Assembly: GCA_024655945.1 (NCBI GenBank)
Contig: JANLFK010000011.1
Location: 22,021 to 86,020 of the forward strand
DNA length: 64,000 nucleotides
Reading direction: 5' to 3'
From: Candidatus Zhuqueibacterota bacterium
GTDB lineage: Bacteria > Zhuqueibacterota > Zhuqueibacteria > JANLFK01 > Oleimicrobiaceae
The translations under genes were made by a program, and so were the position numbers. The notes beneath the pieces were generated by a model that saw nothing but the letters and a program-made list of their open reading frames with translations, made no database searches and had not been told where the DNA came from. Shown piece by piece: positions 25,349 to 43,097 of the stretch (position 1 is its first letter; each line of letters begins with the position of its first letter).

Positions 25349-25391
25349 CTCTCCTCCGGTCACAAGGGCCGTGCAAGAAAGTTGCATTCTC

Positions 25392-25433
25392 TTGACCAAA
25401 ATCAAGGAATTCCTCATGCGCGCGGCATAAATT
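25392..25433 (+). promoter_or_regulatory. Fnr/Dnr-type box and -10 element (class II promoter) for the NO-response operon
   Basis: TTGAC-CAAA-ATCAA (25392-25405) versus consensus TTGAT-N4-ATCAA; TAAATT at 25428-33 places the box at about -41.5. Confidence 0.7.
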
Positions 25434-25478
25434 TACCACAACAAAAGGAAAAATGCCATGCGAAAGTGGAGAGACGCC

Positions 25479-26342: not shown

Positions 26343-26353
26343 GGAGGAGGGCA

Positions 26354-26686
26354 ATGACTTCTGTGCAACGCGAAGAGCCAAAGTGGCCTGCGGAGTTGGC
26401 CGCCTTGGTGCAGTACCAGCCCGCAGCCATCGTGAGCAGGGCCATAGTGCAGGCGGCAGGTGGTTCGGTGACCTTGTTTGCTTTCGACGAGGGGCAACAT
26501 CTGAGCGAGCACACTGCTCCATTCGACGCATTGGCGCACGTGCTTGAGGGCGCGGCGACCGTTGTCATCAGTGGAGTGGCCTATCAGGTGGAGGCGGGCC
26601 AGGCCATCCTCATGCCGGCCAACAAGCCACATGCTGTTCAGGCGCAGCAGCACTTCAAGATGGTGCTGACGATGATAAGGTCGTGA
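26354..26686 (+). CDS. Cupin domain protein
   Basis: TLFAFDEGQHLSEHTAPFDA...MPANKPHAV. Confidence 0.88.
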   Translation: MTSVQREEPKWPAELAALVQYQPAAIVSRAIVQAAGGSVTLFAFDEGQHLSEHTAPFDALAHVLEGAATVVISGVAYQVEAGQAILMPANKPHAVQAQQHFKMVLTMIRS

Positions 26687-26888
26687 CCAGCCGACAGCAG
26701 AAAAAGAACCCGCGATCTCAGAGGGACGCACAGAGTGGCGGACGAGTGTGGCCATGACCATCTGGCCGCCGATCTCTGTCACGCAGCGGCTCTGACAAGT
26801 ACGCTGCCCTGGAGGCGGGCCGGAAGGGCAAGCTGGGCGCGGAGGCAAGCGCGAGCTGTCGCGGGCACAGAGCCAAGGGGAGGAAAGG

Positions 26889-27434
26889 ATGAGACCAACG
26901 GAGACATTAGTCGAGGAGCATCGAATAATTCTCGTGGTGCTGGAGGCAGCAGAGCGGGAAGCGACGCGCATCGAAGCGACCGCCAAGGTGGACAACCCCC
27001 GGCTCGAGCAGCTGTCAGATTTCTTCCGCAACTTCGCCGATGCCTGCCATCATCGCAAGGAGGAAGAGCACCTCTTCAAGCTCCTCAAGAAGAAGCCACC
27101 GCTGCGCGGGCCTGTGGCGGTGATGCTGCAGGAGCACGAGATGGGCAGGGGTTTCCTCCGGAGTGTCAAGGAAGGACTGGCTGCTTGGGCGCAGGGCAAT
27201 CCTGCGGGAGCCATGCAGGTGGTGGAGGGCCTGCGCAGCTACGCGGAGCTCCTGCGCGCCCACATCGATAAGGAGAACCAGGTGTTGTTCCCCATGGCCG
27301 ATAGGGTCCTTACCCCAGCCGAGCAAGAGCAGCTTACCGTGACCTTCGAGAGGGTGGAGAAAGAGGAAGTCGGCGAAGGGGTGCACGAGCAGTATCACCG
27401 CATGGCGCTTCAGCTGGCGGAGGGTAAGCCCTGA
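26889..27434 (+). CDS. Hemerythrin/HHE domain protein
   Basis: EEH, HHRKEEEHLF, QEHEMGR, HIDKENQVLF di-iron ligand pattern. Confidence 0.9.
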   Translation: MRPTETLVEEHRIILVVLEAAEREATRIEATAKVDNPRLEQLSDFFRNFADACHHRKEEEHLFKLLKKKPPLRGPVAVMLQEHEMGRGFLRSVKEGLAAWAQGNPAGAMQVVEGLRSYAELLRAHIDKENQVLFPMADRVLTPAEQEQLTVTFERVEKEEVGEGVHEQYHRMALQLAEGKP

Positions 27435-27702
27435 AGGAGAAGAGGCGTGCCGGCGAGAGAGGAGCCGGAGGCGCCCGTCTCGTGTTGAGCAACGGCACGT
27501 AGTGTGCGGCAGGATCGCTATTCTGGAGGGACCAGGTTGGATGGTGGCAAAAGCCGTTAGTCCGTTTGCGCGGCCCGCGCCCGGTCTGCCCATCAGGCGC
27601 GGTGCACCGCCTTTGCGGCGCCCCACCAGGGCAGAAGCGGCGCGCTTTCCCATCGTCGCCAGAGAATTTATCGAGAGGACGCGGGCCGAGCAGACTCTTC
27701 TG

Positions 27703-28701
27703 GTGAACAGGCGACTCTACCACTTAGACTGGATGGCCGAGCGCCATTTCGTCTTGGCAGGGGCGACCGGCCACGGGCTTGGTGGAGCCTTAGCCGTGGC
27801 GACTCTGTTCCGTTTGGGGCGTCGCGGTAGCCTGACCGTCATCTCGCGCGATTTGTCCCTGTCGGTCGGGTACCAGAGCGGTCTTCTGATGCAACAGATG
27901 GCTGAGCAGTTGGGCCTCGGTGAGCGCTTCCACTGGTTGAACGACGGACTGGCCACCTCAGGGGAGGCATTCGAGCGCATTGTGGCCGCTTTGCGGCAGG
28001 CTCGCGCCACCGCGGTGGTGTACATCAACACCGTAGCCTCGGCCAGCTCGGGGCTATTGCCGGGATTGCCTCCTGTGTACGTCAAGGACATTGATCGCGA
28101 TGGCCTCTTCCAATGGCAACTGGAACCGCTCAGCGAGAAGGCCATCGAGACCACCAAGTACGTCATGGGCACACTGGCGGTGCAGTTTCCGATGGCGCTG
28201 GAAAAAGCAGGTATTCACGTGGAAGTGAGCGCCTTTGCCGATTGGCGCGGCAGCCTGGACCACTGCAGCCGCAACCCCGCTGTCCCGGAGTACGGCCGTC
28301 ATGGGCCCTATTCCACCAGCCTCTTCCTGCCGAAGGACATCATCCAGGCGGCCACCAGAGCAGCGTACAAGACCTCACGCAAGGTAATCGACGTCTTCTT
28401 CCCCGTGATGAAGACGCGGGCCCTGTCCTACATCCCCGGCGGCAGGCTCATGGCGCTGCTGTATGACGAGCTGCGCCGCCGCGAAGAGCTCCCCTTCATC
28501 GACATCCCAGAGCTGGCGGTAGCCTTCCTCGACAGGGTTGGCCGCGCGCTCGACAAAGGTGTGGACAACCTCTTCCCACGCCTCGATCTCCATGAGGCCT
28601 CTCTGGACTTTTGGTTCTACGAAGTGATGCAGCGCCTCACCATGGACGAGAACGACGAGTTCTTCTACAAACGGTGGATTCGCGATGACTGGGACGAATA
28701 G
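27703..28701 (+). CDS. Hypothetical protein; divergent FabV/trans-2-enoyl reductase-like Rossmann fold
   Basis: VLAGATGHGLG, EPLSEKAIETTKYVMG, KTRALSYIPG and PRLDLHE resemble FabV motifs in the same order; start uncertain (ORF opens at 27502). Confidence 0.55.
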   Translation: MNRRLYHLDWMAERHFVLAGATGHGLGGALAVATLFRLGRRGSLTVISRDLSLSVGYQSGLLMQQMAEQLGLGERFHWLNDGLATSGEAFERIVAALRQARATAVVYINTVASASSGLLPGLPPVYVKDIDRDGLFQWQLEPLSEKAIETTKYVMGTLAVQFPMALEKAGIHVEVSAFADWRGSLDHCSRNPAVPEYGRHGPYSTSLFLPKDIIQAATRAAYKTSRKVIDVFFPVMKTRALSYIPGGRLMALLYDELRRREELPFIDIPELAVAFLDRVGRALDKGVDNLFPRLDLHEASLDFWFYEVMQRLTMDENDEFFYKRWIRDDWDE

Positions 28702-28764
28702 ATTGCCTGCCGCCCCGCAAAGCGATGGCCGGTCCTTGGCGAGAAGCTGACGAGGAGGAAAGCA

Positions 28765-30180
28765 ATGCATCTATCAGCATCAACTCGGGTGGGAGAGCTC
28801 CTGAAGGAGCACCCCTTTTTGCTCGATTTCCTGGTGAGTCGATCGGAGAAGTTCAAGCTGCTGACGAACCCACTGCTGCGGCGCACCGTGGGACAGGTGG
28901 CTACCCTTGCGCAGGTGGCGGCCATCGGCAATATCGAGCTGGGAACATTGCTGGCGGAGATAGCCGGGGAGATCAAGCGCCAGACCGGCCAAGAGGTGAC
29001 GTTGGATACCTCAGCGGTGCCACCAGTGACCGTCACCGACCCCGCACATCGGATTGAGATGCTCAAGGCCATCATTGCCGACTTGCACGAAGGGCGGGAC
29101 ATTGCCACTGCCCGGCAGCGCTTCCGCGAGCTCATCAAGGACGTCGAGCCGAGCGAGATGGCGGCCATGGAGCAGAAGCTCATCGAAGAGGGGATGCCCG
29201 AGGCAGAAGTCAGGCGTTTGTGTGACGTGCATGTGGAGGTGTTCAAAGAGGCTTTGGAACGCCACGAACTGCCCGGTGCACACCTTCATGCAGGAGAACC
29301 GCGCCTTAGAGGGACTCGTGCAACAGGTCAGGGAGCTCACCGCACACCCGTCCCCTCCCCGCGACGCGCTGCCCAGGCTCGCCACCCTGGTGGACGAGTT
29401 GCGCAAAGTAGACCTCCACTACCTGCGGAAGGAGAACCAGCTTTTCCCGCTGCTGGAGAAACACGAGGTGAGCGGGCCGTCGCAAGTCATGTGGGCCATT
29501 CACGACGATATTCGCGGACAGCTCAAAAAATGTGCACAAATGTTAGAGGCGGGGGACACGGCAGAGGCAATCGCTCTGCTGGCCCGCGCTTCCCAAGAGA
29601 TAGCCGACATGATTTACAAGGAAGAACACATCTTATTCCCCCGGCTTTGGAACTCGGCTCCCGAGGAGTGGGTGCGGGTGAAGGCAGGCGAGGAAGAGAT
29701 CGGCTTTGCCTGGATTGCCCCACCGCCGCCCTGGCAGCCGAAAGCTGAGGAACCCCCTCCCTTTGCAGCAGCCGCTCAGGCGTGGAAGTTCGACACCGGC
29801 CACCTGACCCCTGAGCAGGCCAACCTCATCCTCACGCACTTGCCAGTTGACCTTTCGTTGTCAACGAGCGCGACGAGGTCGTCTACTACTCGGCCACGCG
29901 CGAACGCCTCTTTCCGCGCAGTCCTGGGGTGATCGGCCGCAAGGTGCAAAAGTGCCACCCACCGAAGAGCGTGCACATCGTGCAGCAGATCCTTGACGAT
30001 TTTCGTAGCGGCAAGAAGGACGTGGCCGAGTTTTGGATCACCGCGCATGGGCGCTTCATCCATATCCGCTACTTTGCGGTGCGCGACCGCGCAGGAGTCT
30101 ATCGTGGTTGCCTCGAAGTGACGCAGGACGTGACCGGCATTCGCGCGCTCACAGCCGAAAAGCGACTGCTGGACTGGTGA
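28765..30180 (+). pseudogene. DUF1858-DUF438-hemerythrin-PAS protein, broken by at least two frameshifts
   Basis: Three overlapping ORFs (28765, 29054, 29929) carry consecutive domains (IADLHEG...EQKLI...LCDVH; HYLRKENQLFPLLE; IGRKVQKCHPPKS); shifts near 29275 and 29858. Confidence 0.8.
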
Positions 30181-30254
30181 TGACAGGTTCGGCGGGTACC
30201 TTGTGGCGATGCCCTGTCCGAGCGAGGTAGAACAGCAACTGAAGGAGGTGCACA

Positions 30255-32531
30255 ATGTCCATCGCAAAGTTGAAATGGGCAGCCATTGCCGCCTTCGTGG
30301 TAGCGATGGCAGTGCTGTTGGGTGGTGGACTGGCGGCAAAACGGCAGCTTGCCCCCTATCCGGGCACGGTGACCGATGCGGAGGGGAGAGCCCTCTTCAC
30401 ACGGGCGGACATACTGCATGGCCAGGAGGTCTACCAACGCCATGGCCTAATGGACCATGGCAGTGTGTGGGGGCATGGTTCGCAGCGCGGGCCGGAATTC
30501 TCGGCCCTTACCCTACACCTCATCGGCGAGGCCCTGCGCGAGGAGGCAGCATTCCAGGAATTCGGGCGCGCATACGCCGAACTGGGCCAGGCAGAGAGGG
30601 AACTGGTCGACTTGAAGACCAAGTGGGAGGTCAAGGAGAATCGTTACGATCCTCAGGCGGACAGGCTGGTGCTTTCGCCCACCCAGATCAAGGCCTTGGC
30701 GCGCGTGGAGCAGTACTGGGACAAGGTGTTAGGAGAGGGGGAACTTCGCTACGGCTTCCTGCCGCAAACGGTCAAGGACGCCGCCGACCGGCAGCAGGTC
30801 GCCCGCTTTTTCTTCTGGACTGCATGGGTTGCCTCGGTGCAGCGTCCTGGGGAGGACTACTCCTACACCAACAACTGGCCTCCCGATCGCAGCGTGGGCA
30901 ACACTGCCACCACGAACGTCTACCTCTGGACGCTGGGCGGCATCTTCTCCCTGTTCATCGTGTTGGGGCTGTTCATCTATTGGGTGCACCACCACGAGCT
31001 TTGGTACGGCGAGGCGCGTGGCGTGCCCTTAGCGGAGAAACTCATCGACATGCCGCTCACGCCGAGCCAGTTCCGGGCGGCAAAGTTCTTCCTCGTGGTC
31101 ATCCTTCTGTTCCTCCTGCAGACTACGTTCGGCGGACTACTTGCCCACTACACGGTGCATCCGCGCAACTTCTACGTGTCGTGGATCGCCAAGGTGATGC
31201 CGTACAGTTGGGCAAAGAGCTGGCATCTGCAACTGGCCATCTTCTGGATCGCCACCACCTGGGTGGCCTCCGCCATCTACTTGGCGCCCATTCTGGGCGG
31301 GCGCGAGCCGAAGCGTCAAGGTCTCCTGGTGAACATCCTGTTCATCGCAGTGCTCGCCGTTGCCCTGGGTAGCCTGTTTGGCGAGGTGGCAGGCATCAAG
31401 GGGTTGCTGGGCAAGGCGTGGTTCTGGCTCGGACACCAAGGGTGGGAGTATCTTGAGCTTGGCCGGGTGTGGCAGATCCTGCTTTTCGTGAGCCTCATCG
31501 CCTGGCTGCTCATCGTCTACCGCGCGGTGGCTCACCACCTCCGGCTGAAGCACAAGGACGAGTTCACCGCGCTGATCTGGTTCTACCTCCTCAGTGCCAT
31601 CCTGGTGGTGGGCTTTTTCGGCTTTGGCCTCACGTACGGCCGGGGCACGCACCTGACGCTGGCCGACTACTGGCGCTGGTTCGTGGTGCACATCTGGGTG
31701 GAGAGCATTTTCGAGTTTTTCGGCGTGGCTGTAATCTCCACCCTGCTGGTGGCCATGGGCCTGGTGACGGCGAAGGCGGCGCTGCGGGTGGCATACTTTA
31801 CCGCCGCCCTTGTCTTCCTCACCGGGATCATCGGCACTGCCCACCATTACTTCTGGTACGGCGGTCCCTCCTTCTGGCTGGGGTGGGGCGCTGTCTTCTC
31901 CTCCATGGAGCCTGTGCCGCTCTTCGGTCTGGTGGTGCGGGCACTGATGGAGTACAAGGCAGTGAGGGGACAGGGACAGGAGTTCCCCTACCGCTGGCCT
32001 TTCTACTTCCTGGTTGCCTCTTCTTTCTGGAACTTTCTCGGGGCCGGCGTGTTCGGGTTCCTGATCAATCTGCCCATTGTCAACTACTTCGAGCACGGCA
32101 CCTATCTGACGATGAATCACGGCCACACGGCCTTGTTCGGCACTTATGGCATGTTGTCCATCGCGCTGCTGCTTTTCTCGTGGCGTGGCCTGGTGGACAA
32201 GGCGCGATGGAATGATCGCCTGCTTGGGCTGTCCTTCTGGGGTTTGAACGGTGGCCTGCTTTTGATGGCCCTGGCCACCCTGTTGCCGGTGGGTATCATG
32301 CAGGCGTGGACAAGCTTCAAGGAGGGGCTGTGGGTGGCGCGCGACGCCTCCTTCTTCGAACGTGGGCCGGTGGTGTTGCTGGGACAGCTGCGCATGATTC
32401 CCGATTTGCTCATCATTCTCTTCGGGGTGGTTCCACTGGCTTACTTCTTGTTCTCCACGTACCCGAGGCTAAAGCCACCCGCTATCAAGGCCGGGGAATC
32501 GGTGTGGAAGGAGCTGGGAACGGAGCTCTGA
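30255..32531 (+). CDS. norZ: Quinol-dependent nitric oxide reductase (qNOR)
   Basis: 758 aa; GSVWGHGS, SWHLQLAIFW, HIWVES, GTAHHYFW, MEPVPL, NHGHTALFG. Confidence 0.93.
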   Translation: MSIAKLKWAAIAAFVVAMAVLLGGGLAAKRQLAPYPGTVTDAEGRALFTRADILHGQEVYQRHGLMDHGSVWGHGSQRGPEFSALTLHLIGEALREEAAFQEFGRAYAELGQAERELVDLKTKWEVKENRYDPQADRLVLSPTQIKALARVEQYWDKVLGEGELRYGFLPQTVKDAADRQQVARFFFWTAWVASVQRPGEDYSYTNNWPPDRSVGNTATTNVYLWTLGGIFSLFIVLGLFIYWVHHHELWYGEARGVPLAEKLIDMPLTPSQFRAAKFFLVVILLFLLQTTFGGLLAHYTVHPRNFYVSWIAKVMPYSWAKSWHLQLAIFWIATTWVASAIYLAPILGGREPKRQGLLVNILFIAVLAVALGSLFGEVAGIKGLLGKAWFWLGHQGWEYLELGRVWQILLFVSLIAWLLIVYRAVAHHLRLKHKDEFTALIWFYLLSAILVVGFFGFGLTYGRGTHLTLADYWRWFVVHIWVESIFEFFGVAVISTLLVAMGLVTAKAALRVAYFTAALVFLTGIIGTAHHYFWYGGPSFWLGWGAVFSSMEPVPLFGLVVRALMEYKAVRGQGQEFPYRWPFYFLVASSFWNFLGAGVFGFLINLPIVNYFEHGTYLTMNHGHTALFGTYGMLSIALLLFSWRGLVDKARWNDRLLGLSFWGLNGGLLLMALATLLPVGIMQAWTSFKEGLWVARDASFFERGPVVLLGQLRMIPDLLIILFGVVPLAYFLFSTYPRLKPPAIKAGESVWKELGTEL

Positions 32532-32538
32532 GCTGAGG

Positions 32539-32574
32539 CGGGGAGGCCGGCAGCGATGGGCCGCGGCCTCCCCG
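32539..32574 (+). terminator. GC-rich hairpin after qNOR
   Basis: 11-bp stem CGGGGAGGCCG/CGGCCTCCCCG; no U-tract. Confidence 0.35.
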
Positions 32575-32607
32575 TCCGAATCGATCACATCAGAATGTGA
32601 GTGTCAT

Positions 32608-33027
32608 ATGGTGAGACGAGCTGGCAATCGCCTTCTGCGTGAAGAGCGGACCGTTGCGGTCATGATCGGCATCTATTGTGCCGGCGCACACGGCAGCCGG
32701 GTCGGTTTGTGCGCCGAGTGTAAGGAGGTCTTGGCCTATGCTCGGCAGCGCGTGGCGCGATGCCCCTTTGGGGCAGAGAAGCCTACCTGCGCCAAATGCG
32801 TCGTGCACTGCTTTCGCCAGGACATGCGGGCCAGGATCCGTGCGGTGATGCGCTATGCCGGGCCGCGCATGCTTTTTCGCCACCCTGTGCTTGCGTTCTT
32901 CCATCTGTTGGACAGGCGGCGAGGCGCCCCACAACTGCCCCTGGCAGAGGGCGCGAAGGACTCAAAGCTATGCGAGCCACAGGGAGCAGCGGCCAATCGG
33001 TTCACGGTCACGCAAGAAAGTGCTTGA
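32608..33027 (+). CDS. Nitrous oxide-stimulated promoter family protein (YgbA-like)
   Basis: TVAVMIGIYC...LC.EC...YA..R...CPFG..KPTC.KC..HC...M...MRYAGPRML.RHP. Confidence 0.9.
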   Translation: MVRRAGNRLLREERTVAVMIGIYCAGAHGSRVGLCAECKEVLAYARQRVARCPFGAEKPTCAKCVVHCFRQDMRARIRAVMRYAGPRMLFRHPVLAFFHLLDRRRGAPQLPLAEGAKDSKLCEPQGAAANRFTVTQESA

Positions 33028-33052
33028 CAAGCTTGTGGCTTTTGAGTATATT
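33024..33052 (+). promoter_or_regulatory. Sigma70 promoter of the aro/trp/his supra-operon
   Basis: TTGACA-N17-TATATT. Confidence 0.8.
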
Positions 33053-33074
33053 TACCGCAACAAAGGTAACAGGT

Positions 33075-33170
33075 ATGGCTACTTCTCAGGTACAGCGAGA
33101 TCTCTCCCATCACTGGTTTTGGTACTGGTATTATCATATCAGTGGTGGGAGGAATTTGTCCCTGACCTGA
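33075..33170 (+). CDS. Attenuator leader peptide MATSQVQRDLSHHWFWYWYYHISGGRNLSLT
   Basis: AAAGG RBS at 33062-66; ten consecutive His/Trp/Phe/Tyr codons at 33108-33137; lies between the promoter and the terminator. Confidence 0.85.
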   Translation: MATSQVQRDLSHHWFWYWYYHISGGRNLSLT

Positions 33171-33239
33171 AGTACTACCAAGCATAGCAAGAGGCAAATT
33201 CAGCCCACCACAGAGCAGCGTGGTGGGCGTTTTGTTTTT
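33105..33239 (+). promoter_or_regulatory. Transcription attenuator with mutually exclusive 1:2, 2:3 and 3:4 stems
   Basis: Segment 1 TCCCATCACTG (33105-15) pairs with segment 2 CAGTGGTGGGA (33140-50, one G-U); segment 2 GTGGTGGG pairs with segment 3 CCCACCAC (33204-11); segment 3 pairs with segment 4 as the terminator. Confidence 0.85.
33203..33239 (+). terminator. Intrinsic terminator of the leader
   Basis: GCCCACCAC-agagcagc-GTGGTGGGC followed by GTTTTGTTTTT. Confidence 0.85.
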
Positions 33240-33451
33240 CTGGCCATGCCACTTGGAGCGTCGTTGGCAGCCCTTTGCGATTCGCCACGGATAGGCGCGA
33301 GCATCCCGGCTGTAACCTGCCGGTGTCTGCGGCCTGTGCCTTCGTTCGTGGTTTCTGAGAGACTGCTCATGTCCACCGACGCCGCGCGGCGCGGCCGTGG
33401 CGATAGATGGCTGACCAATGGTGACCTGGAGTGCTTCACGGGAGGGATGCA

Positions 33452-33712
33452 GTGGAAGATCCCCTTGTCGCCGCAAGAAAGAGAATCGACGACATCGATA
33501 GTGCGATCATCGCGCTGCTGAACGAGCGGGCGCGCTGCGCCCTCAGCATTGGCGCCATCAAGCGGGAGCGGGGCCTTCCGGCTCGCGACGCAGCGCGGGA
33601 GGCAACCATCTTGGCGCGCGTGGAGAGGGAATCGGGAGGCCCCCTGGCGGGTTCTTCGCTCCGCCGGATTTTTGCAGAAATCGTCGCTGCATGTCGCAGC
33701 TTGCAGGAATAG
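33452..33712 (+). CDS. Chorismate mutase (AroQ class, CM_2)
   Basis: RKRIDDIDSAIIALLNERARCA..IGAIK...D..RE; GGAGG RBS before GTG 33452. Confidence 0.9.
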   Translation: MEDPLVAARKRIDDIDSAIIALLNERARCALSIGAIKRERGLPARDAAREATILARVERESGGPLAGSSLRRIFAEIVAACRSLQE

Positions 33713-33728
33713 CCAAGCAGGAGGTGAC

Positions 33729-34562
33729 GTGGCCCAAGCCAATGACCAGCTGAAGATAGGCGAGTTGCCCCGCCTGACCATTCTTCCCATCGAGGACGTG
33801 CTCTTTCACGAGGAGCCAGATGAGGAGCGAGCGACGCTGCTCACCGCAAAACTCGAGAAGGAGGGGGTGCTGAGGAACCCGCCTATCGTCGCCGATGTCA
33901 ACGGCGCCAGGCGACGCATCCTGCTTGATGGCGCCAATCGGCTGACGGCCCTGCGCACCCTTGGCTTCCGGCATGTGTTGGTGCAGGAAATCGATCTGTT
34001 TGACCCTGGCCTGGTCATTTCCCAATGGCACCACGCCGTGGAGCGCCTGGACAGGTCCTATTTCCAGCAGAGACTGGCCGAGATCGACGGGCTCATGGTC
34101 AGCGAGGAGGCTTTTTCGGAAGGCGGTGCCATCGCCCGCCTGCAGTTTCCCGACCGCTCCCACTTGCACCTCTGTGCCGACGGGGACATCTTCCACCTTG
34201 TCCGCCTGCTTGCACAGGTGACCAGCCTGTATCACGGCTCGGCGTACATGGACCGCGTGAGTTACACCAACCTCGAACACCTGCAGCGCAACTATGCCGA
34301 GTTCAGCGCTCTGGTTTCTTTCCGCACCTTTAGCAAAGATGAAATAGTCGAGCTCACGACGAACAACGCCAAAGTGCCGAGCGGCATCACCCGTGTGGTG
34401 GTGCCCAAGCGGGCTCTGTTCTTCAATCTCCCCCTGGAGGTTTTGGCCAGAGGCGCTAGCACTGCGGAACTGCATCAGTGGCTCCAACGGCATTTGGCCG
34501 ACAAGATCAGGAGCAAGTCTATCCGCTTCTACCAGGAACCGACCTTTATCTTCGACGAGTAG
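33729..34562 (+). CDS. SbnI/SerK-like ParB/Srx-fold free L-serine kinase (putative)
   Basis: [53 protein letters not shown] match the motif order recalled for S. aureus SbnI. Confidence 0.75.
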
Positions 34563-34615
34563 CTGACCCTGGGCGCGCCCAGGAAGGAACTGTACCAAAA
34601 CGTGAGGAGTGCGCA

Positions 34616-35977
34616 ATGGACAGAGTCAAGTACCAGCTGGATGAGAAGGAGGTGCCGCGGCAATGGTACAACATCCAGGCCGATCTCCCGGAGCCGCTGC
34701 CGCCGGTTCTTCATCCGGCAACTGGCAAGCCCGTAGGTCCGGATGACCTGGCACCGCTCTTCCCCGTGGCGCTCATCACGCAGGAGGTGAGCACCGAGCG
34801 CTGGATCGACATTCCCGAAGGGGTGCGGGAGGTGTACGCACTCTGGCGCCCAACGCCGTTGTACAGGGCCAGACGACTGGAGAAAGCATTGGATACGCCG
34901 GCGCGGATCTTCTACAAGTACGAGGGGGTGAGCCCAGCAGGCAGTCACAAGCCGAACACCGCAGTTGCCCAGGCCTACTACAATGCCAAGGAAGGCATCA
35001 AGCGGATTACCACCGAGACAGGTGCTGGACAGTGGGGGAGTGCGCTGGCGCTGGGCGGTATGTTCTTCGGGGTGGAAGTGAAAATCTACATGGTGGCGAT
35101 AAGCTATCGGCAGAAGCCTTATCGCCGCATTCTCATGGAGACATGGGGGGCTACCTGCATCCCCAGTCCCAGCAATGAGACCAAGGCCGGTCGAGCGGTG
35201 CTGGCCCGCGATCCCGACAGCCCGGGCAGCCTGGGCATCGCTATTAGCGAGGCGGTGGAGGAGGCTGTCACCCGCGACGACACCCACTACTCTTTGGGCA
35301 GTGTGCTCAACCACGTGCTGCTGCATCAGACTGTCATCGGCTTGGAAGCAAGACGGCAGATGGAGCTGGCAGGCTACTATCCGGATGTCATCGTCGGTTG
35401 CATCGGCGGGGGCTCCAATGCGGCCGGGCTGTACCTGCCCTTCTTGAAGGACAAGATCGACGGGGCGCAGCCGCACCTCCGGGTGATCAACGTGGAGCCA
35501 GCCAGTTGCCCCACGGTCACCAAGGGCCTGTACGCCTACGACTTTGGCGACAGTGCCGGCCTGACCCCGCTGCTGAAGATGTACACCTTAGGTCACGACT
35601 TTGTGCCGCCGCCAGTACACGCGGGTGGTCTGCGCTACCATGGCATGGCGCCGATTGTGTGCCACCTGCATCGCTTAGGGCTGGTGGAGGCGCGGGCCGT
35701 CAATCAGGTGGACACGTTCCAGGCAGGAGTGACCTTTGCCCGTCATGAGGGAATTGTCCCGGCCCCGGAGAGCAACCACGCCATTCGCGTGGTCATCGAC
35801 GAAGCACTGCGCTGCAAGGAGGAGGGGAAGGCACGCACCATTCTTTTCAACCTTAGCGGCCATGGCCACTTCGACATGGCGGCCTACGAGAGCTTCCTGG
35901 GCGGCAAGTTGCGGGACTATGAGTATCCGGAAGAACAAGTGGCGGAGGCGCTCAAGCGTCTGCCTGTCGTATCCTGA
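34616..35977 (+). CDS. trpB2: TrpB2-type tryptophan synthase beta chain (TrpB-like PLP enzyme)
   Basis: [26 protein letters not shown] (PLP Lys), [33 protein letters not shown]; about 453 aa. Confidence 0.93.
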
Positions 35978-36010
35978 GCGCCTTCGACCGCGCGATCCGG
36001 AGGAAGCCCC

Positions 36011-37036
36011 ATGGTTGTGGTGATGGACGACAACGCCACCCCGGAAGAGATCCAGGCGGTGGAGGACAAGCTGGTTGCCCTTGGTTTTCGGGTGCATCGC
36101 TCTACCGGGGTGAACCGTACCATCCTCGGTGCCATCGGTGACAAGCGAGGGGTAGACACGCGCGTCCTGGAGGTGATGCGTGGAGTGCATGAGGTGCTGC
36201 GCGTCACCGAGCCGTACAAGCTGGCCAGCCGCGCTTTTCACCCGTTGGACACGGTGGTGCGCGTGAGGGACGTTGAGGTGGGGGGCGAGGAGGTGGTGGT
36301 GATGGCCGGTCCCTGCGCGATAGAGAGCGAGGCGCAGATTGACGAGGTGGCCGGCTTGGTCAAGAAGGCTGGGGCGCGCGTGCTCCGTGGTGGGGCCTTC
36401 AAGCCGCGCACCTCGCCTTACAGCTTTCAAGGCCTGGGCGAAGAAGGGTTGCGCTTCCTGCGCAACGCAGCGCAGGCACATGGTCTGGCGGCGGTCTCTG
36501 AGCTCATCGAGGCTCGCGACGTGGAGATGGTGGCCTTGTACGTGGATCTTCTCCAGATTGGCGCGCGCAACATGCAGAATTTTCCCCTGCTCAAAGAGGC
36601 AGGTCGAGCTGGCAAGCCAGTGCTCCTAAAGAGGGGCATGGCGGCCACCATCGAGGAGTGGCTCATGGCAGCCGAGTACATCATGGCCGCTGGCAACTCG
36701 CAGGTCATCCTGTGCGAACGGGGCATTCGCACCTTTGAGACCTACACGCGCAACACCATGGACATTTCGGCAATACCGGTGGTGAAAAAGCGGAGTCATT
36801 TGCCCATCATCGCTGACCCCAGCCACGGCACTGGCCTGCGCGACAAGGTGGCGCCCATGGCCCGCGCGGCGGTGGCGGCCGGAGCCGATGGACTGCTGGT
36901 CGAAGTGCACCCGCGTCCCGACGAGGCACTCTCCGATGGCGCACAGTCCCTGCTGCCGGAGCAGTTTGCGCATCTGATGGAGGAGCTGCGCATCATCGCC
37001 TGGGCCATTGGCAGGAGGGTGGCGGAGCCGCAATGA
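36011..37036 (+). CDS. aroF: DAHP synthase, type I-beta, with N-terminal regulatory domain
   Basis: [49 protein letters not shown]. Confidence 0.95.
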
Positions 37037-38151
37037 GCGACACTACCCAACAAAAGGCGCCCAGGCGCGTGGCGATCATCGGCATCGGGGTGATTGGCGG
37101 CTCGTTGGCCATGGCCGTCAAGCGCAAACTACCAACGGTGGAGATCTTGGCCAGCGATGAGGAGCCGATCGTTGCTCTGGGGAGAGAACTTGGCGCCATC
37201 GACCGAGGGTTCGCCAAGGAAGAGGTGGAGCGATGCGTGGCACAGGCCGACGTCGTGGTGTTGGCGACGCCCATTGCGGAGATCCTGCGCCTCTTGCCAA
37301 GGGTGGCAGCGGCAGTCCGACCTGGCACCATAGTCACCGATGTCGGAAGCAGCAAGCGCACGATAGTACAGGCAGCCGAAGCCGTGTTCCCTTCTGGCTG
37401 CTACTTTGTGGGCGGTCACCCGATGGCTGGCTCGGAACGCCAAGGCCTGCGCGGAGCCGATCCCCTCATGTTCGACAACGCAGTGTGGGTGCTCACGCCG
37501 GCTGCCAAGACCCCTGCGCGTGTGGTGCGTTCCCTGGGCAGCCTCTTAGAGCAGGTTGGGGCCAAGGTGCTCATTGTCAGCCCGCTGTTGCACGACCGGG
37601 TAGCGGCGGCGGTTAGCCACCTGCCCCAGCTTCTGGCCGTGGCGCTGATGAATATGGTCGCCCGGCATCAATCCGACATGCCCCACCTGCTGAAGTTGGC
37701 GGCAGGCGGATTCCGGGACATGACGCGCATCGCCTCCAGTCCCTACCGCATGTGGGCGGACGTGCTTGCCACCAACGTCGAGCAGATCGTGCCCTTTGTG
37801 GACGAGTACATCGCCGAGCTGCAGCGCCTCCGCAGCAGGCTCCTGGCCGGGGATTTGGCAGGAGAGTTCGACAGTGCTGCCCGCAGCAGGCTGTCCATTC
37901 CGCGCGACACAAAGGGCTTTCTGAAGCCCCACTATGACCTCATCGTCCAGGTGGAAGATCGGCCCGGGGTGATTGCGGCGATGGCCGGGGCACTGGCCGC
38001 CGAGGAGATCAACATCAAGGACATCGAGGTGCTGAAGGTGCGGGAGGGCGATGCCGGCAGCATCCGCATGGCCTTCGAGTCGGAGGCCTGTCGCACGCGC
38101 GCCGCGACGCTCATTGGCCGCCTGGGTTACCGGACGCGCAGGGTGGAGTGA
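37033..38151 (+). CDS. tyrA: Prephenate dehydrogenase with C-terminal ACT domain
   Basis: [52 protein letters not shown]. Confidence 0.93.
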
Positions 38152-38155
38152 GGCC

Positions 38156-39436
38156 ATGGACCGGGAGATCAGAGGAGGCGGTGCGCTGCGCGGCACGGTG
38201 AGGGTGCAAGGGGACAAGTCGATTTCCCATCGGGCCCTGATTTGTGGCGCCATAGCCGAGGGCCGGACGCACATCCGCAACCTTTGCCCGGGCAAGGACG
38301 TGCAGAGCACGATAGCGTGTCTGCAAGCCTTAGGAGTGCCGATCCGGGTGTGCGGGAGCGAGGCCAGCGTGGACGGCGTGGGCCTGCGCGGTTTGCGGCC
38401 GCCGCCCGCCGTACTCGACGCGGGCAATTCCGGGACGACCATGCGACTCCTTGCCGGCGTTCTGGCCGGTCAGCAGTTTGCCGCCTCCCTCACCGGGGAT
38501 GAGTCACTCCGGCGGCGGCCCATGGCGCGCGTCATCGAGCCCTTGGCCATGATGGGCGCGCGCATCGAATCTATGCCCGGAGGCTTCGCACCGCTGCGCA
38601 TTCAGGGCGGCAAGCTCACGGCCATCTCCTATGCAATGCCGGTTGCCAGCGCTCAAGTCAAATCGGCGGTGCTGTTGGCCGGCCTCTTTGCCGAAGGCAC
38701 AACCGAGGTCGTGGAGCCAGCGCCCACGCGTGACCACACCGAGCGCATGCTGCCCCACTTCGGCGTGGCAGTAAGCGTGGACCGCAGAGCGGTGGCCGTA
38801 CGTGGGCCGGCACGGCTGCAGGGCGCCAGCGTGGAGGTACCGGGGGACATATCTTCGGCAGCCCTTCTCCTGGCAGCGGCCGCGGTGGTGGAAGGGTCCG
38901 CTTTGCGGGTCGAAAAAGTAGGCGTCAATCCGACCCGCAGCGGCCTGCTCGAGGTTTTGAGGAAGATGGGCGCGCGGATAGTTCTCGAAGAACAGGCGGA
39001 GGCCTGGGAGCCGGTGGCCGATCTCCTTGTAGAGGCAGGTTCGCTGCGTGCCGTGGAAATCGACGGTGCGCTTGTCCCGCGCCTGATTGACGAGCTGCCG
39101 GTGCTGGCGGTGGTGGCCACCCAGGCCGAAGGGGAGACTCGCATCCAAGGCGCAAGAGAGTTGCGCGTGAAGGAGAGTGACCGCATCCGGGCTGTGGCCG
39201 CCAATCTCAGGGCCATGGGCGCCGAGGTGCAGGAGCTCGAAGACGGGCTCGTCATCCCCGGACCTCAGAAGCTGAAGGGGGCCGCGGTGGACAGCTTCGG
39301 CGACCACCGCATCGCCATGAGCTTTGCGGTTGCCGGGTTGCTCGCCCACGGCCCGACTGTGATCCGCCACGCCGAGTGCGTGGATATCTCCTTTCCTGGC
39401 TTCTTCGACTTGCTCGAGGAGCTGCGCCGTGGCTGA
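38156..39436 (+). CDS. aroA: EPSP synthase
   Basis: GDKSISHRA, GNSGTTMR, SAQVKSA, RDHTERML, IDELP, LRVKESDRI, DHRIAM. Confidence 0.96.
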   Translation: MDREIRGGGALRGTVRVQGDKSISHRALICGAIAEGRTHIRNLCPGKDVQSTIACLQALGVPIRVCGSEASVDGVGLRGLRPPPAVLDAGNSGTTMRLLAGVLAGQQFAASLTGDESLRRRPMARVIEPLAMMGARIESMPGGFAPLRIQGGKLTAISYAMPVASAQVKSAVLLAGLFAEGTTEVVEPAPTRDHTERMLPHFGVAVSVDRRAVAVRGPARLQGASVEVPGDISSAALLLAAAAVVEGSALRVEKVGVNPTRSGLLEVLRKMGARIVLEEQAEAWEPVADLLVEAGSLRAVEIDGALVPRLIDELPVLAVVATQAEGETRIQGARELRVKESDRIRAVAANLRAMGAEVQELEDGLVIPGPQKLKGAAVDSFGDHRIAMSFAVAGLLAHGPTVIRHAECVDISFPGFFDLLEELRRG

Positions 39437-40307
39437 CGCGCACACCCAGACGCTCGGGCTCATCGGCGATCCTGTGGACCATTCCCTTTCGCCTCTACTG
39501 CATGGGAACTTGATTCACGTCCTTGGCGTGAACTGTTGCTACCATGCCTTCCGGGTGCGCCGCGAGGAGCTGGCCGAGGCTGTGGCCGGGCTAAGGGCGC
39601 TCGGCGTGAGGGGGGTCAATGTCACCATCCCGCACAAAGAGGCGGTCTTGCCGCTGCTGGACGAGGTTTCCCCAGAGGCCCGGGCAGTGGGGGCCGTGAA
39701 TGTCATCGTCAACCAGCAGGGACGACTGCTTGGGTACAATTCGGACACTGCCGGGGTGGAACTGGCCCTGAGGCGGCGTGGGGTGGACGTGCGTGGCTGC
39801 AAGGTCGTGGTACTGGGCGCGGGGGGCGCCGCGCGCGCGGTGGTGTGGGTGCTGGCGCAGATGGGGGCGGCAGCTGTGCACATCCACAGCCGCACACCGA
39901 CCCGAGGAGAACGACTTGCCAGCGAATTGGCCGAATCGTGCGGCAAGACTGAGCTGACCGTGTTCCCGTGGGAGGAAGCTGCTCTCGCCCGGAGTCTGGA
40001 GGGTGCGGCGCTCCTGGTCAACGCGACGCCCTGCGGCATGTGGCCCCGGCATCACGAATCGCCCGTGACGGGCAATTTCCTCGGCAAGGGCATAGTGGTG
40101 TTCGACTTAGTTTACAATCCCCTGCACACTCGCTTGCTGCGGGAGGCGGCAGGACGCGGGGCGCAGACCATACCCGGCCTGGACATGCTCATCTTCCAAG
40201 CGGTGGAGGCGATGGCACTCTGGACCGGCCGCCGTCCGGCAAAGGAGGGCGAATTCATGACCGAGATGCGCACATTTCTCAGCAAGGAACTGCAGGGTTA
40301 TGCGTAG
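39429..40307 (+). CDS. aroE: Shikimate dehydrogenase
   Basis: HSLSP, NVTIPHKE, GAVN, NSD, GAGGAARA, MLIFQA. Confidence 0.95.
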   Translation: MADAHTQTLGLIGDPVDHSLSPLLHGNLIHVLGVNCCYHAFRVRREELAEAVAGLRALGVRGVNVTIPHKEAVLPLLDEVSPEARAVGAVNVIVNQQGRLLGYNSDTAGVELALRRRGVDVRGCKVVVLGAGGAARAVVWVLAQMGAAAVHIHSRTPTRGERLASELAESCGKTELTVFPWEEAALARSLEGAALLVNATPCGMWPRHHESPVTGNFLGKGIVVFDLVYNPLHTRLLREAAGRGAQTIPGLDMLIFQAVEAMALWTGRRPAKEGEFMTEMRTFLSKELQGYA

Positions 40308-41490
40308 ACTGCGGTACTTCACTGCAGGCGAGTCGCACGGCAAGGCACTGGTAGGCATTCTGGAGGGGATGCCCGCCCAGGTGCCGGTGCGCAGGGAGGA
40401 GATTGACCGCCAATTGCGTCGTCGGCAAGCGGGCTACGGGAGAGGCGGTCGCATGGCCATCGAACAGGACCGCGTGGAGATTGTTGCCGGCGTGCGCGCA
40501 GGGTACACCACCGGCGCTCCGGTAGCACTCATCGTAGCCAATCGGGACTGGCAGAATTGGCAGGAGGTCATGGCTGTAGAAGCATGTGGCCAACGACCTG
40601 AGCCGGTGACGGTGCCGCGCCCGGGTCACGCGGACCTTGCCGGTGCCCTCAAGTACGGGCATGCCGACCTGCGCGACGTCATCGAGCGGGCCAGCGCCCG
40701 CGAGACCGCTATGCGGGTAGCGTTGGGAGCGATCGCCGGCGAGCTTCTGGAACAAGTGGCTATTGGCGTGGTCAGCCACGTCACGGCCATTGCTGGTCAC
40801 TGGAGTCGCTGGCAAGCGACGGATGAGACGCCGGCAGCTGCTGGTCGCCGTGCTCTGCAGTGGTGCCGCAGAGTGTGGGCGCAGGCGGACAAATCGCCGG
40901 TGCGCTGCCTGGATCCTGAGGACGAGAAGCGCATGATCGCAGCAATCGATGAGGCACGCGAGGCGGGCGACTCCGTCGGTGGCGTGCTCGAAGTGGTGGC
41001 TGTGGGCGTGCCCCCGGGACTCGGCAGCTATGTGCACTGGGACCGCCGCCTGGACGGGCGCTTGGCCATGGCAGTGATGTCGATTCCCGGCATCAAGAGT
41101 GTTGAGATCGGCCTGGGGTCGAAAGCCGCAGACCTGCGCGGTTCGCAAGTCCACGATGAGATCAGCCCCCGGCCGCGGCGCAGGCTAGCACGGGCCAGCA
41201 ACCGGGCAGGCGGCATCGAGGGCGGCGTGAGCAACGGCCAGCCCATCGTGCTGCGCGCTGCCATGAAACCGATACCGACGCTTGCCCGCCCCTTGCGTTC
41301 TGTGGACTTGCGCGATGGCAAGCCCGAGGCGGCTCTTCGTGAGCGGGCAGATGTGTGTGCGGTCCCGGCGGCTGCGGTGGTCGCAGAGGCCATGGTCAAA
41401 CTGGTGCTTGCCGATGCCATCTTGGAAAAGTTCGGCGGCGACTCACTGCCTGAACTGCTTGCAGCCTATGAGCGCGCCACGGTCCGGTAA
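40300..41490 (+). CDS. aroC: Chorismate synthase
   Basis: TAGESHG, RPGHAD, ERASARETA, SNRAGGIEGG, MKPIPT, RADVC. Confidence 0.96.
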   Translation: MRRLRYFTAGESHGKALVGILEGMPAQVPVRREEIDRQLRRRQAGYGRGGRMAIEQDRVEIVAGVRAGYTTGAPVALIVANRDWQNWQEVMAVEACGQRPEPVTVPRPGHADLAGALKYGHADLRDVIERASARETAMRVALGAIAGELLEQVAIGVVSHVTAIAGHWSRWQATDETPAAAGRRALQWCRRVWAQADKSPVRCLDPEDEKRMIAAIDEAREAGDSVGGVLEVVAVGVPPGLGSYVHWDRRLDGRLAMAVMSIPGIKSVEIGLGSKAADLRGSQVHDEISPRPRRRLARASNRAGGIEGGVSNGQPIVLRAAMKPIPTLARPLRSVDLRDGKPEAALRERADVCAVPAAAVVAEAMVKLVLADAILEKFGGDSLPELLAAYERATVR

Positions 41491-42013
41491 CCTCTACCTC
41501 ATCGGCTTCATGGGCGCAGGCAAGAGCAGCCTCGGCCGAGCCCTTGCCGCACGCCTGGGCATGACCTTTGTCGACACCGACCAGCTCGTCGAGCAACTGA
41601 CCGGACGCCGCATCGCCGACATTTTCGCTCAAGAAGGTGAAGGTCATTTTCGGCAGCTCGAGCGGCAGGTGATCCAAATCGTGAGCAGCCGTAGCGGCCA
41701 GGTGGCTGCAGTCGGCGGGGGCGCGGTCATGGATAGCGAAAACTGGCGACGGCTGCAAGGGAGTGGGACCACCGTGTACCTCGAATGCACCGCCTCACTC
41801 TTGGCCCGCCGACTTGCCGAGGACAGAGTGCGTCCGCTGCTACGGGGACTTGAGGGAGAGGAGCGTTCCCGGGCCATTGCAGGCCTGTTGGCGGAGCGGG
41901 AGCCGCGTTACCGCCAGGCGCAGGTGGTTCTGCGTGTGCACGAAAAGAGCACGACCGAAGCCCTGGTGAGTCGACTGCTGGTGGTGTTGGGGAAACAGGA
42001 TGGAGACGATTGA
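41468..42013 (+). CDS. aroK: Shikimate kinase
   Basis: LIGFMGAGKS P-loop, DTD, GEGHFR..E, GGG, RPLL. Confidence 0.94.
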   Translation: MSAPRSGNLYLIGFMGAGKSSLGRALAARLGMTFVDTDQLVEQLTGRRIADIFAQEGEGHFRQLERQVIQIVSSRSGQVAAVGGGAVMDSENWRRLQGSGTTVYLECTASLLARRLAEDRVRPLLRGLEGEERSRAIAGLLAEREPRYRQAQVVLRVHEKSTTEALVSRLLVVLGKQDGDD

Positions 42014-43094
42014 GGTCAAAGTAGGCACCGGCTCCTACCCGGTGCACGTCGAAATGGGCCTGCTCGCACGGGTGGGGGAACTGCTCGCCCCTTGCCTGGT
42101 GGGCCGGCGTGTTGCGCTGGTCACCGATAGCCACGTGGCTCCCCTCTACGGCCCGCAAGTGAGCCCGAGTCTCCGGGCAGCCGGGGTGGAAGTGACCCAG
42201 TACGCCGTGCCTGCGGGTGAGGCGTCCAAGTCGCTGCGCTCCTGCCAGTGGCTGTGGGGAAAGCTTATAGAGGACCGGCTCGATCGCAGTGCCACGGTGG
42301 TCGCGCTTGGTGGAGGGGTGGTTGGCGACCTGGCAGGATTTGTGGCATCAACGTACCTGCGTGGGGTGCGCTTGGTGCAGATTGCCACCACCCTCATTGC
42401 ACAAGTAGATAGCGCATTGGGCGGCAAGACGGGGATCAATCACCCGGCCGCAAAGAACGTCATCGGGACCTTCTATCATCCGTGCTGCGTGCTCATCGAC
42501 CCGACTGTGCTCGCGACTTTGAAGAGGCGCGATCTGCGTGCGGGATTTGCTGAAGTGCTCAAATATGCCATCGTCGCCCACCCAGCGCTGTTCCAGGTGT
42601 TGCAGGAGAAGTTGGAGGCCTTGCTGAGTTTCCAGGACGAGAAAGCTCTTGCCTGGGTGATCAGTGAATGTTGCCAGGTGAAAGCGCGCATCGTCAGCAG
42701 AGACGAGCGCGAGCAGGGGATGCGGCGGGTGCTCAACTTTGGCCATACCATCGGGCATGCCCTGGAGGCCGCCACCAGGTTCAGGGTGCTCCGTCACGGC
42801 GAGGCGGTGCTCGTGGGCATGCGTGGGGCAGCTTGGCTGTCCGCGCAAAGGGGGCTTTTAGCGGATGAGCAGTTCCGAGCGGTCATCAAGCTCCTGAATC
42901 GGCTGCCGTGCTCAGTGGATCTGTCGCGCGTAGCCCCTTCCGCAGTGATGGAATTTGTCGCTGCCGACAAGAAGCATTATGCCCGGGCGCTGCACTTTGT
43001 GGGTTTGCGGGGCATCGGCTGGCCGCAGGTCATTACCGACGTGACGGAGCAGGAACTCATGGCCGCCATCGCGTATGCCTTGGGCAGGAGGTGA
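42000..43094 (+). CDS. aroB: 3-dehydroquinate synthase
   Basis: GEASKS, GGGVVGD, QVDSALGGKTGIN, LNFGHTIGHALE, HGEAV, DKK. Confidence 0.96.
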   Translation: METIEVKVGTGSYPVHVEMGLLARVGELLAPCLVGRRVALVTDSHVAPLYGPQVSPSLRAAGVEVTQYAVPAGEASKSLRSCQWLWGKLIEDRLDRSATVVALGGGVVGDLAGFVASTYLRGVRLVQIATTLIAQVDSALGGKTGINHPAAKNVIGTFYHPCCVLIDPTVLATLKRRDLRAGFAEVLKYAIVAHPALFQVLQEKLEALLSFQDEKALAWVISECCQVKARIVSRDEREQGMRRVLNFGHTIGHALEAATRFRVLRHGEAVLVGMRGAAWLSAQRGLLADEQFRAVIKLLNRLPCSVDLSRVAPSAVMEFVAADKKHYARALHFVGLRGIGWPQVITDVTEQELMAAIAYALGRR

Positions 43095-43097
43095 CGG

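Follow-up and report, generated by a model that had tools for sequence, protein, structure and literature searches.

Organization of the locus

Here, we analysed a 64,000-nucleotide stretch of DNA from a Candidatus Zhuqueibacterota bacterium (GenBank assembly GCA_024655945.1, contig JANLFK010000011.1, positions 22,021 to 86,020 of the forward strand; hereafter the window), with a focus on two adjacent plus-strand genes. One encodes a putative free L-serine kinase of 277 aa related to SbnI and SerK (33729–34562), and the other encodes TrpB2, a TrpB-like pyridoxal phosphate (PLP) enzyme of 453 aa (34616–35977). The kinase-like gene has a GTG start codon with AGGAGG 4 nt on its 5' side and begins 16 nt after the stop codon of a chorismate mutase gene, and trpB2 starts with ATG behind the Shine-Dalgarno sequence AGGGAGGA. 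Upstream, and on the same strand, lie a sigma-70-type promoter (TTGACA-17-TATATT, 11 of 12 consensus matches; 33024–33052), a leader peptide open reading frame (ORF), MATSQVQRDLSHHWFWYWYYHISGGRNLSLT (33076–33171), and a four-segment attenuator (33104–33238). A preliminary description of the locus had proposed that the first enzyme forms O-phospho-L-serine (OPS) and that TrpB2 combines it with indole, as an indole-salvage route to tryptophan controlled by Trp codons in the leader.

By sequence, the downstream gene is unambiguously TrpB2, as had been stated. It scored above the cut-offs of both TrpB2 models (NF009057, 746 bits with a cut-off of 366; TIGR01415, 664 bits with a cut-off of 519) and well under that of the TrpB1 model TIGR00263 (156 bits, cut-off 392). 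Crystallised TrpB2 entries in PDB matched it at 1e-119 to 4e-134, compared with about 1e-40 for TrpB1 entries. TrpB2 enzymes have been reported to depend on OPS or to prefer it (Busch 2014, in the account given in PMC11917138), and their Km for indole is sub-micromolar according to papers that cite Hettwer and Sterner (2002).

Relationship of the 277-aa protein to SbnI and SerK

The motifs quoted in the preliminary description were all found in the translation of 33729–34562. When the protein was searched against PDB with phmmer, SbnI was matched at E-values of 3e-13 to 2e-10, with 5uje (3e-13) aligned to residues 15–260 of the window protein and 5ujd and 6nr6 to residues 16–275. SerK was matched in the N-terminal part alone (E = 0.017), and the match to PF0380 was likewise weak and confined to the N-terminal half. 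A profile made from 24 family sequences recovered SbnI at 1.5e-21 and SerK, which was then aligned over its full length, at 1.6e-4. No Pfam family, DUF1015 included, matched the protein at E ≤ 0.01, and neither a helix-turn-helix nor any other DNA-binding domain was detected in the Pfam scan.

Structural comparison with SbnI and SerK, which had been suggested as a check, gave a match of folds over the full length. The AlphaFold2 model of the protein (predicted local distance difference test score, pLDDT, 86; predicted template modelling score, pTM, 0.83) was compared with PDB using Foldseek. The three SbnI entries were the best hits (E about 1e-17, template modelling (TM) score about 0.8, full length), followed by the SerK and PF0380 entries (E about 1e-14, TM about 0.76), and the SbnI/SerK alignments extended across 238–270 columns with TM scores of 0.75–0.81. 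Other ParB, Noc, KorB and sulfiredoxin (Srx) structures matched about 80 N-terminal residues only, with E > 1e-4. The protein has the two-domain architecture of this group, namely a ParB/Srx-like nucleotide-binding N-domain followed by a C-domain specific to SerK and SbnI.

The residues that correspond to the catalytic Glu and Asp of SbnI are also present, as had been noticed at the outset. E28 of the window protein aligns with the catalytic Glu (E20 in SbnI, E30 in SerK), and D67 is the aligned counterpart of SbnI D58, the Asp of the DG..R motif; both are invariant in an alignment of 24 family members that are otherwise 45–82% identical. E20 and D58 of SbnI reportedly have catalytic roles (Verstraete 2018), and that of the Glu is indicated also by the names of the mutant PDB entries, E30A/Q. 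A C-terminal T-R is common to SerK (TTRH), SbnI (GVTRF) and the window family (SGITR), in which it is invariant, and about 70 further positions besides the Glu and Asp are invariant across phyla.

The protein scored 75.7 bits with the NCBIfam equivalog model of SbnI (NF033589, cut-off 350) and 35.2 bits, in the N-terminal part only, with that of SerK (NF053625, cut-off 380). Being far under both cut-offs, these scores imply that it is not an orthologue of SbnI or SerK and belongs to a separate, TrpB2-linked subfamily. Database relatives are mostly named "hypothetical protein", and a few Joint Genome Institute (JGI) entries are auto-named "L-serine kinase (ATP) / ParB family ... regulator". Taken together, these data identify the 277-aa protein as a genuine SbnI/SerK-type homologue of full length with conserved catalytic residues, and its homology and predicted fold suggest that it most likely acts as a free L-serine kinase. 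We also considered the gene as a stand-in for a missing shikimate kinase and rejected this idea, since a normal aroK with a GAGKS P-loop is present at ~41480–42013.

Conservation of the gene pair

One genome per species was scanned for relatives of the kinase-like protein. They were found in 219 genomes, and the best 80 loci of these were analysed. In 69 of the 76 testable loci, the next gene downstream, on the same strand, was trpB2, and the median spacer was 57 nt. The other 11 of the 80 loci comprised four whose contigs end at the kinase gene, two with trpB2 within 5 kb and five with no trpB2 in the available flank. The 80 loci are distributed among KSB1, Calditrichota, Gemmatimonadota, Zixibacteria, Ignavibacteria, Marinimicrobia, Eisenbacteria/Krumholzibacteriia and Comamonadaceae-type Betaproteobacteria, together with one Anaerolineae and one Acidimicrobiia metagenome-assembled genome, and those with the pair come from at least seven phylum-level groups. 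The adjacency, on which the preliminary description had staked its proposal beforehand, is conserved when viewed from the kinase gene.

All-against-all clustering of the neighbouring ORFs revealed no second widely conserved neighbour in the 80 loci. Neither trpA, trpB1 nor trpS was found near the pair in these loci or anywhere in the 64-kb window, and serA and serC were not found among the neighbours in the 80 loci. The aro operon that surrounds the pair in the window was common only to its closest relative (L001, 84% identical). As order and strand are the same in 69 of 76 loci and the other neighbours vary, the two genes are not chance neighbours, which supports that the SbnI-like gene and trpB2 behave as a functional module. 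It could be argued that the adjacency is fortuitous and without functional meaning, as most TrpB2 genes do not have this neighbour; however, its constancy across at least seven phylum-level groups effectively refutes this explanation.

Leader peptides and attenuation

The leader ORF of the window contains regulatory codons for three His, three Trp, one Phe and three Tyr residues at 33109–33138, within the stretch SHHWFWYWYYH. The attenuator consists of segment 1 (33104–33117), segment 2 (33138–33151), segment 3 (33203–33211) and segment 4 (33220–33228), followed by a U-run. The predicted folding energies are −27.2 kcal/mol for the 1:2 hairpin, −30.2 kcal/mol for 2:3 and −19.3 kcal/mol for 3:4 (terminator with U-run). 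The leader as a whole folds with z = −4.9 and the antiterminator duplex with z = −4.3, and the terminator was picked up by the scan. The same leader is carried by L001. A further terminator-like site at 33644–33667, inside the chorismate mutase gene, was dismissed as chance because 2.2 sites per region are expected in shuffled sequences.

Upstream of the kinase gene, about 38 loci belonging to several phyla have a short ORF that contains consecutive Trp codons (WWW or WWWW runs; for example NWWWWR, WCWWWR, RWWWR and HWWWC), and the window leader resembles these W-run leaders, such as NNWWFWWWNISGGRSS in L015. A strong terminator with a 9–12 bp stem and a U-run begins 23–42 nt past the leader stop codon in 29 of the 31 loci examined. 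A segment located within the leader just past the W run, with the consensus AG(C/T)(A/G)G(C/T)GGGAGGA, is able to pair with the 5' arm of the terminator. The resulting antiterminator duplexes have energies of −14 to −26 kcal/mol and z-scores mostly of −3 to −5, and their two sides covary between clades (CCCACT with AGTGGG versus CCGCTGCAG with CTGCAGCGG). In the window and its relatives, the arrangement is that of a leader-peptide attenuator, in which an ORF of regulatory codons precedes alternative antiterminator and terminator hairpins. These results support that the SbnI-like/trpB2 pair is tied to tryptophan by W-run leaders with a terminator and an antiterminator.

For the window itself, the proposed control by Trp codons in the leader stands only in part: Trp codons and an attenuator are present, but the leader also has F, Y and H codons and stands in front of a whole aro/his operon. 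The change from a W run to such a mixture is in keeping with the combined operon behind it.

The family of Trp leader attenuators (W runs, a AGCAGCGGGAGGA-like segment and a terminator) was observed within L002–L059, in KSB1, Gemmatimonadota and related phyla. The leaders are located 100–300 nt upstream of the SbnI-like gene (e.g., 345–506 in L022 and 7782–7886 in L009), and L002 has two of them in tandem. A search of Rfam with the leader region and with eight loci lacking W leaders gave nothing at gathering score; a single sub-threshold match, to a viral pseudoknot, is almost certainly a chance hit. No W-run leaders were seen in the Comamonadaceae-type loci, which have indolepyruvate-oxidoreductase-like iorA/iorB genes upstream. 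On one metagenome contig (Ga0315275_10008942; L128, 2944–3111), the same leader type (…NRWWWCPPLSSGRSV…) lies directly before trpB2 and no SbnI-like gene is present; the kinase was either lost there or never gained.

Other members of the superfamily

An exhaustive profile search, counted as cluster representatives at 50% identity, yielded 317 representatives of the superfamily at E ≤ 1e-30 and 812 at E ≤ 1e-10, most of which resemble a branch without a trpB2 link. In several of them (P0197, P0213 and P0247, ~585–603 aa), a full-length SerA-type D-2-hydroxyacid dehydrogenase is fused N-terminal to the SbnI-like domain, and at L084 (601–2361) such a fusion is encoded downstream of a class-V aminotransferase fragment. 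It is possible that the fusion represents a serine-assimilation cassette, leading from serine via OPS and 3-phosphohydroxypyruvate to 3-phosphoglycerate; the arrangement in L084 echoes the serK–dehydrogenase–aminotransferase clusters known from Desulfurococcales (PMC5120207). Another member (P0200; L085 3318–5825 and L086 857–3364) has a ThiS/CysO-like domain fused to the SbnI-like domain, and genes for a 317-aa CysM-like PLP enzyme, a JAB/Mec-like protease and an Rrf2 regulator are found 3' of the fusion. These two loci are candidates for a self-sufficient OPS-dependent thiocarboxylate pathway to cysteine that includes its own serine kinase. In addition, cystathionine-beta-synthase (CBS)-type PLP enzymes are encoded directly upstream of the SbnI-like gene in L060 and L088.

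The occurrence of SerA-like, CysO/CysM/Mec and CBS-like partners supports the supply of OPS as a common role of the superfamily. With SbnI and SbnA included, a recurrent theme is that a kinase of this fold stands beside a fold-type-II PLP beta-replacement enzyme. A CysK/CysM-like gene was also observed convergent to, and just past, trpB2 in two Gemmatimonadota loci (L044 8925–10175 and L046 3513–4613, minus strand), and its product could be a second consumer of OPS.

These relatives also raise the question of whether the window protein might be a kinase or phosphotransferase with another role, such as phosphorylation of another hydroxy-amino acid, a reverse substitute for SerB (a function put forward for the DUF1015 protein "SerBK") or the conversion of serine to 3-phosphoglycerate, with an indirect link to TrpB2. 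For SerK, a function in serine assimilation and cysteine synthesis has been proposed (PMC5120207), DUF1015 proteins, which are remote structural relatives of SbnI, complement serB (bioRxiv 10.1101/2024.10.14.618325), and some superfamily members carry the SerA-like dehydrogenase fusion. However, the SerA- and CysO-fused proteins belong to distant branches only, being 27–34% identical to the window protein, and neither serA nor serC accompanies the pair in the 80 loci. Within the window's own subfamily, trpB2 is the sole conserved neighbour and the control element senses Trp codons. We therefore consider another role of this kind unlikely.

Proposed pathway and alternative explanations

Based on the homology, predicted fold, gene order and leader anatomy described above, it is likely that the SbnI-like kinase makes OPS and that the co-transcribed TrpB2 joins OPS and indole to form tryptophan, under the control of the attenuator. 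During starvation for aromatic amino acids, the ribosome would stall in the leader, the 2:3 antiterminator would form and the operon would be read through. The kinase would then use a nucleotide phosphate donor (ATP or ADP) to convert L-serine, an abundant substrate, to OPS, and TrpB2 would carry out a PLP-dependent beta-replacement that gives L-tryptophan and phosphate. With phosphate as the leaving group, the TrpB2 step should be effectively irreversible, at the price of one phosphoanhydride bond. Indole might be taken up from the environment, leak from TrpA or be made by a free-standing TrpA. A dedicated kinase would free the supply of OPS from a small pool held low by SerB and would pull the reaction forward. 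In most genomes, the two genes make up a stand-alone operon with a Trp-codon leader in front, and in the lineage of the window (KSB1/Calditrichota-like) they are placed inside an aro/his operon.

Several observations weigh against this pathway. In a reciprocal survey of JGI metagenome contigs, we looked at the 80 closest homologues of TrpB2, which are 63–78% identical and as close as, or closer than, the kinase-linked ones. The kinase was found within 3.5 kb in only 2 of the 59 homologues with enough flank, no alternative conserved kinase neighbour was seen in this survey and W-type leaders were rare. This implies that TrpB2 is not generally dependent on the kinase, which is accessory to some TrpB2 genes only, and the initial idea that the kinase explains how TrpB2 in general is supplied with OPS did not hold. 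Moreover, the identity of the 277-aa protein is only ~22% to SbnI and ~18% to SerK, and, together with the low equivalog scores, this means that its substrate specificity could differ. In the Comamonadaceae-type loci L062, L067 and L070, serB (TIGR00338, 217 bits) is convergent right after trpB2 (in L070 at 10339–11076 on the minus strand, with mfd next). OPS from the SerA/SerC route is probably available in these organisms, and a kinase beside SerB looks futile unless it is regulated. Absence of serA and serC, or of the phosphorylated serine pathway, is accordingly not required for such a module.

SbnI has also been described as a DNA-binding, heme-responsive regulator, and TrpB1 offers a precedent for an enzyme that requires a protein partner, TrpA. 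One ParB-fold survey reported a SerK-like protein that binds CTP and not ATP, and the ParB-CTPase fold widely serves as a nucleotide-dependent switch (PMC12704722); SbnI is itself annotated as a bifunctional transcriptional regulator/OPS synthase and is reported to regulate the sbn operon. The SbnI-like protein might then be a regulator or an allosteric partner, that is, a ParB-fold nucleotide binder acting on DNA or on TrpB2 and not an enzyme here. However, regulation of the operon is already accounted for by the leader attenuator, and no DNA-binding Pfam domain was detected in the protein. Across phyla, the catalytic Glu and Asp do not vary, and neither do about 70 other positions, as would be expected of an active site; the SerA-like and CysO-like fusions point to metabolism. 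A purely regulatory function is, in our opinion, quite improbable.

A different question is whether the putative kinase and TrpB2 constitute the main terminal step of de novo tryptophan synthesis, with indole coming from a free-standing TrpA or another source and with the two proteins replacing TrpB1. In the lineage of the window the pair is embedded in a core operon of aromatic biosynthesis, and a search for trpB1 was negative for the window and, in the 80 loci, up to 8 kb from the pair. Many of the close TrpB2 homologues in the reciprocal survey are inside trp operons, with trpB1, trpA, trpE and trpG-like genes as neighbours; trpB1 and/or trpA lies beside 13 of the 59 testable ones. On the other hand, a 178-kb contig (L089, 1–5840) has the order trpB1–trpA–trpS (tryptophanyl-tRNA synthetase)–trpB2–a gene for a 134-aa MGMT-like DNA_binding_1 protein–SbnI-like gene, which indicates that in at least one genome the pair coexists with a canonical tryptophan synthase. 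When encoded outside trp operons, TrpB2 is also generally seen as an indole scavenger (Hettwer and Sterner 2002, as conveyed by citing papers). A role as the main route is possible but doubtful. At the same time, the label of indole salvage given in the preliminary description was overstated. The position of the pair beside trpB1–trpA–trpS in L089 would fit an accessory role.

Thus, the reading that we prefer is that of a serine kinase feeding OPS to a co-transcribed TrpB2 in a subset of organisms. For the superfamily as a whole, we lean towards the view that SbnI-like kinases, which make up hundreds of 50%-identity clusters, may be a widespread family devoted to supplying OPS and repeatedly recruited by TrpB2, CysM/CysO, CBS-like enzymes and SbnA, with the TrpB2 branch representing an undescribed ATP-driven route induced by tryptophan starvation. 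If this is true, the in-vitro preference of TrpB2 for OPS would gain physiological meaning, and trpB2 would have a second conserved neighbourhood that was invisible to earlier surveys.

Operon structure and surroundings in the window

In the window, 16 tightly packed genes on the same strand lie behind one leader (33024–47329), in the order chorismate mutase, SbnI-like, trpB2, aroF, tyrA, aroA, aroE, aroC, aroK, aroB, aroQ, hisG, hisC, haloacid dehalogenase (HAD) hydrolase, hisB and hisH. The first one encodes a chorismate mutase of the AroQ/CM_2 type (33431–33712, plus strand; PF01817, 2.9e-22), and the SbnI-like/trpB2 module sits between it and the gene for 3-deoxy-D-arabino-heptulosonate 7-phosphate (DAHP) synthase. 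The genes for DAHP synthase, TyrA (with an ACT domain), AroA, AroE, AroC, AroK, AroB and AroQ occupy 36011–43553 on the plus strand and were assigned by Pfam and, for AroK, by reading of the P-loop; they overlap or are separated by very short spacers. They are continued on the same strand by hisG (whose start is approximate), hisC, the HAD hydrolase gene (TIGR01548), hisB and hisH at 43441–47329. The region resembles a supraoperon that combines aromatic and histidine genes under a multi-amino-acid attenuator.

No pheA (prephenate dehydratase) gene was found in this aro/his cluster. Pfam scans of essentially all larger ORFs of the window detected no trpA, trpE, trpG, trpD, trpC or trpF and no siderophore genes, and tblastn searches of the window with TrpA, TrpB1 and TrpRS gave nothing, in agreement with what had been noted from the sequence at first. 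The kinase-like gene is therefore not located in a staphyloferrin B (sbn) cluster.

The HAD hydrolase, which belongs to the uncharacterised TIGR01548 family, is encoded between hisC and hisB (45443–46123) with a 4-nt overlap with hisC, which makes it a candidate for histidinol-phosphate phosphatase, an enzyme that is often missing. The operon is directly preceded by a cluster related to nitric oxide stress and respiration (24698–33027), which encodes a Crp/Fnr regulator, a 4Fe-4S protein, two hemerythrin-domain proteins (one weakly YtfE/RIC-like), a quinol-type nitric oxide reductase of 758 aa and a protein of the "nitrous oxide-stimulated promoter family". On the minus strand at 60383–63932, a glycyl-radical enzyme of 818 aa similar to pyruvate formate-lyase is encoded, with an alanine-racemase-N/D-serine-dehydratase-like protein immediately before it.

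Comparison with known systems

In the open literature, we found no paper that links a serine kinase with TrpB2. A survey of the ParB-CTPase fold names SerK and SbnI in their known roles only (PMC12704722), and trp operons were the only conserved trpB2 neighbourhood detected by Merkl 2007 (PMC1854888). The parts are known, and their partnership, the control by a Trp attenuator and the embedding in an aro/his operon appear to be undescribed.

The physiological role and OPS source of TrpB2 have long been vague, and the enzyme is usually labelled as an "indole salvage" paralogue. A Trp-regulated kinase/TrpB2 operon provides genomic support for OPS as the in-vivo substrate of TrpB2 in these lineages. 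It would also mean that kinases of the SbnI/SerK type serve more than siderophore and cysteine synthesis, and suggest a likely function for a family mostly named "hypothetical protein". Prediction of auxotrophies and pathways could be improved for poorly known phyla of the Fibrobacterota–Chlorobiota–Bacteroidota (FCB) group (KSB1, Gemmatimonadota, Zixibacteria, Ignavibacteria and others), and for biocatalysis the pair may represent a ready-made irreversible cassette for tryptophan and its analogues.

The closest known relative is SbnI of Staphylococcus aureus and S. pseudintermedius (PDB 5UJD, 5UJE and 6NR6), which phosphorylates free L-serine with ATP and also regulates the synthesis of staphyloferrin B. 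It has in common with the window protein the two-domain fold, the Glu and Asp, the DG..R motif and the C-terminal TR, as well as a gene beside that of an OPS-using fold-type-II PLP beta-replacement enzyme (SbnA there and TrpB2 here). Unlike SbnI, the window family lacks the sbn context, is controlled by attenuation at aromatic codons instead of by iron or heme, and has its own strongly conserved C-terminal tail, KSIRFY.EPTF.FDE. The ADP-dependent SerK of Thermococcus kodakarensis (TK0378; PDB 5X0B and others) has the same fold and an equivalent of the conserved Glu (Glu30), and its OPS also feeds a downstream PLP enzyme, in this case for cysteine synthesis. However, SerK is archaeal, serves cysteine synthesis and serine assimilation, and is partnered by dehydrogenase and aminotransferase genes and not by trpB2.

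Characterised TrpB2 enzymes from S. solfataricus and T. maritima are represented by PDB 4QYS, 6HUL and 6HTE, and the window TrpB2 is ~55% identical to the crystallised enzymes. Their genes are found in trp operons, next to trpA or alone, whereas the window TrpB2 occupies a second conserved neighbourhood with the kinase. In the OPS-dependent CysO–CysM–Mec pathway of Mycobacterium tuberculosis, the product is cysteine and not tryptophan, and a dedicated serine kinase is lacking. The distant superfamily member with the ThiS/CysO fusion, CysM-like and JAB layout combines elements of that pathway with the logic of a kinase feeding a PLP enzyme. The DUF1015 protein "SerBK" (GapMind 2026 preprint) is a proposed serine kinase with a remote structural likeness to SbnI and is encoded with genes of the serine pathway. 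It belongs to another Pfam family, is tied to serA/serC and not to trpB2, and is proposed to function in serine synthesis or utilisation.

With regard to regulation, the classical trp, his and phe attenuators of Proteobacteria and Actinobacteria have the same ORF of regulatory codons, the mutually exclusive 1:2, 2:3 and 3:4 hairpins and a terminator with a U-run. Unlike them, the leaders of the SbnI-like/trpB2 operons occur in FCB-group phyla and have no Rfam family, and the version in the window mixes W, F, Y and H codons.

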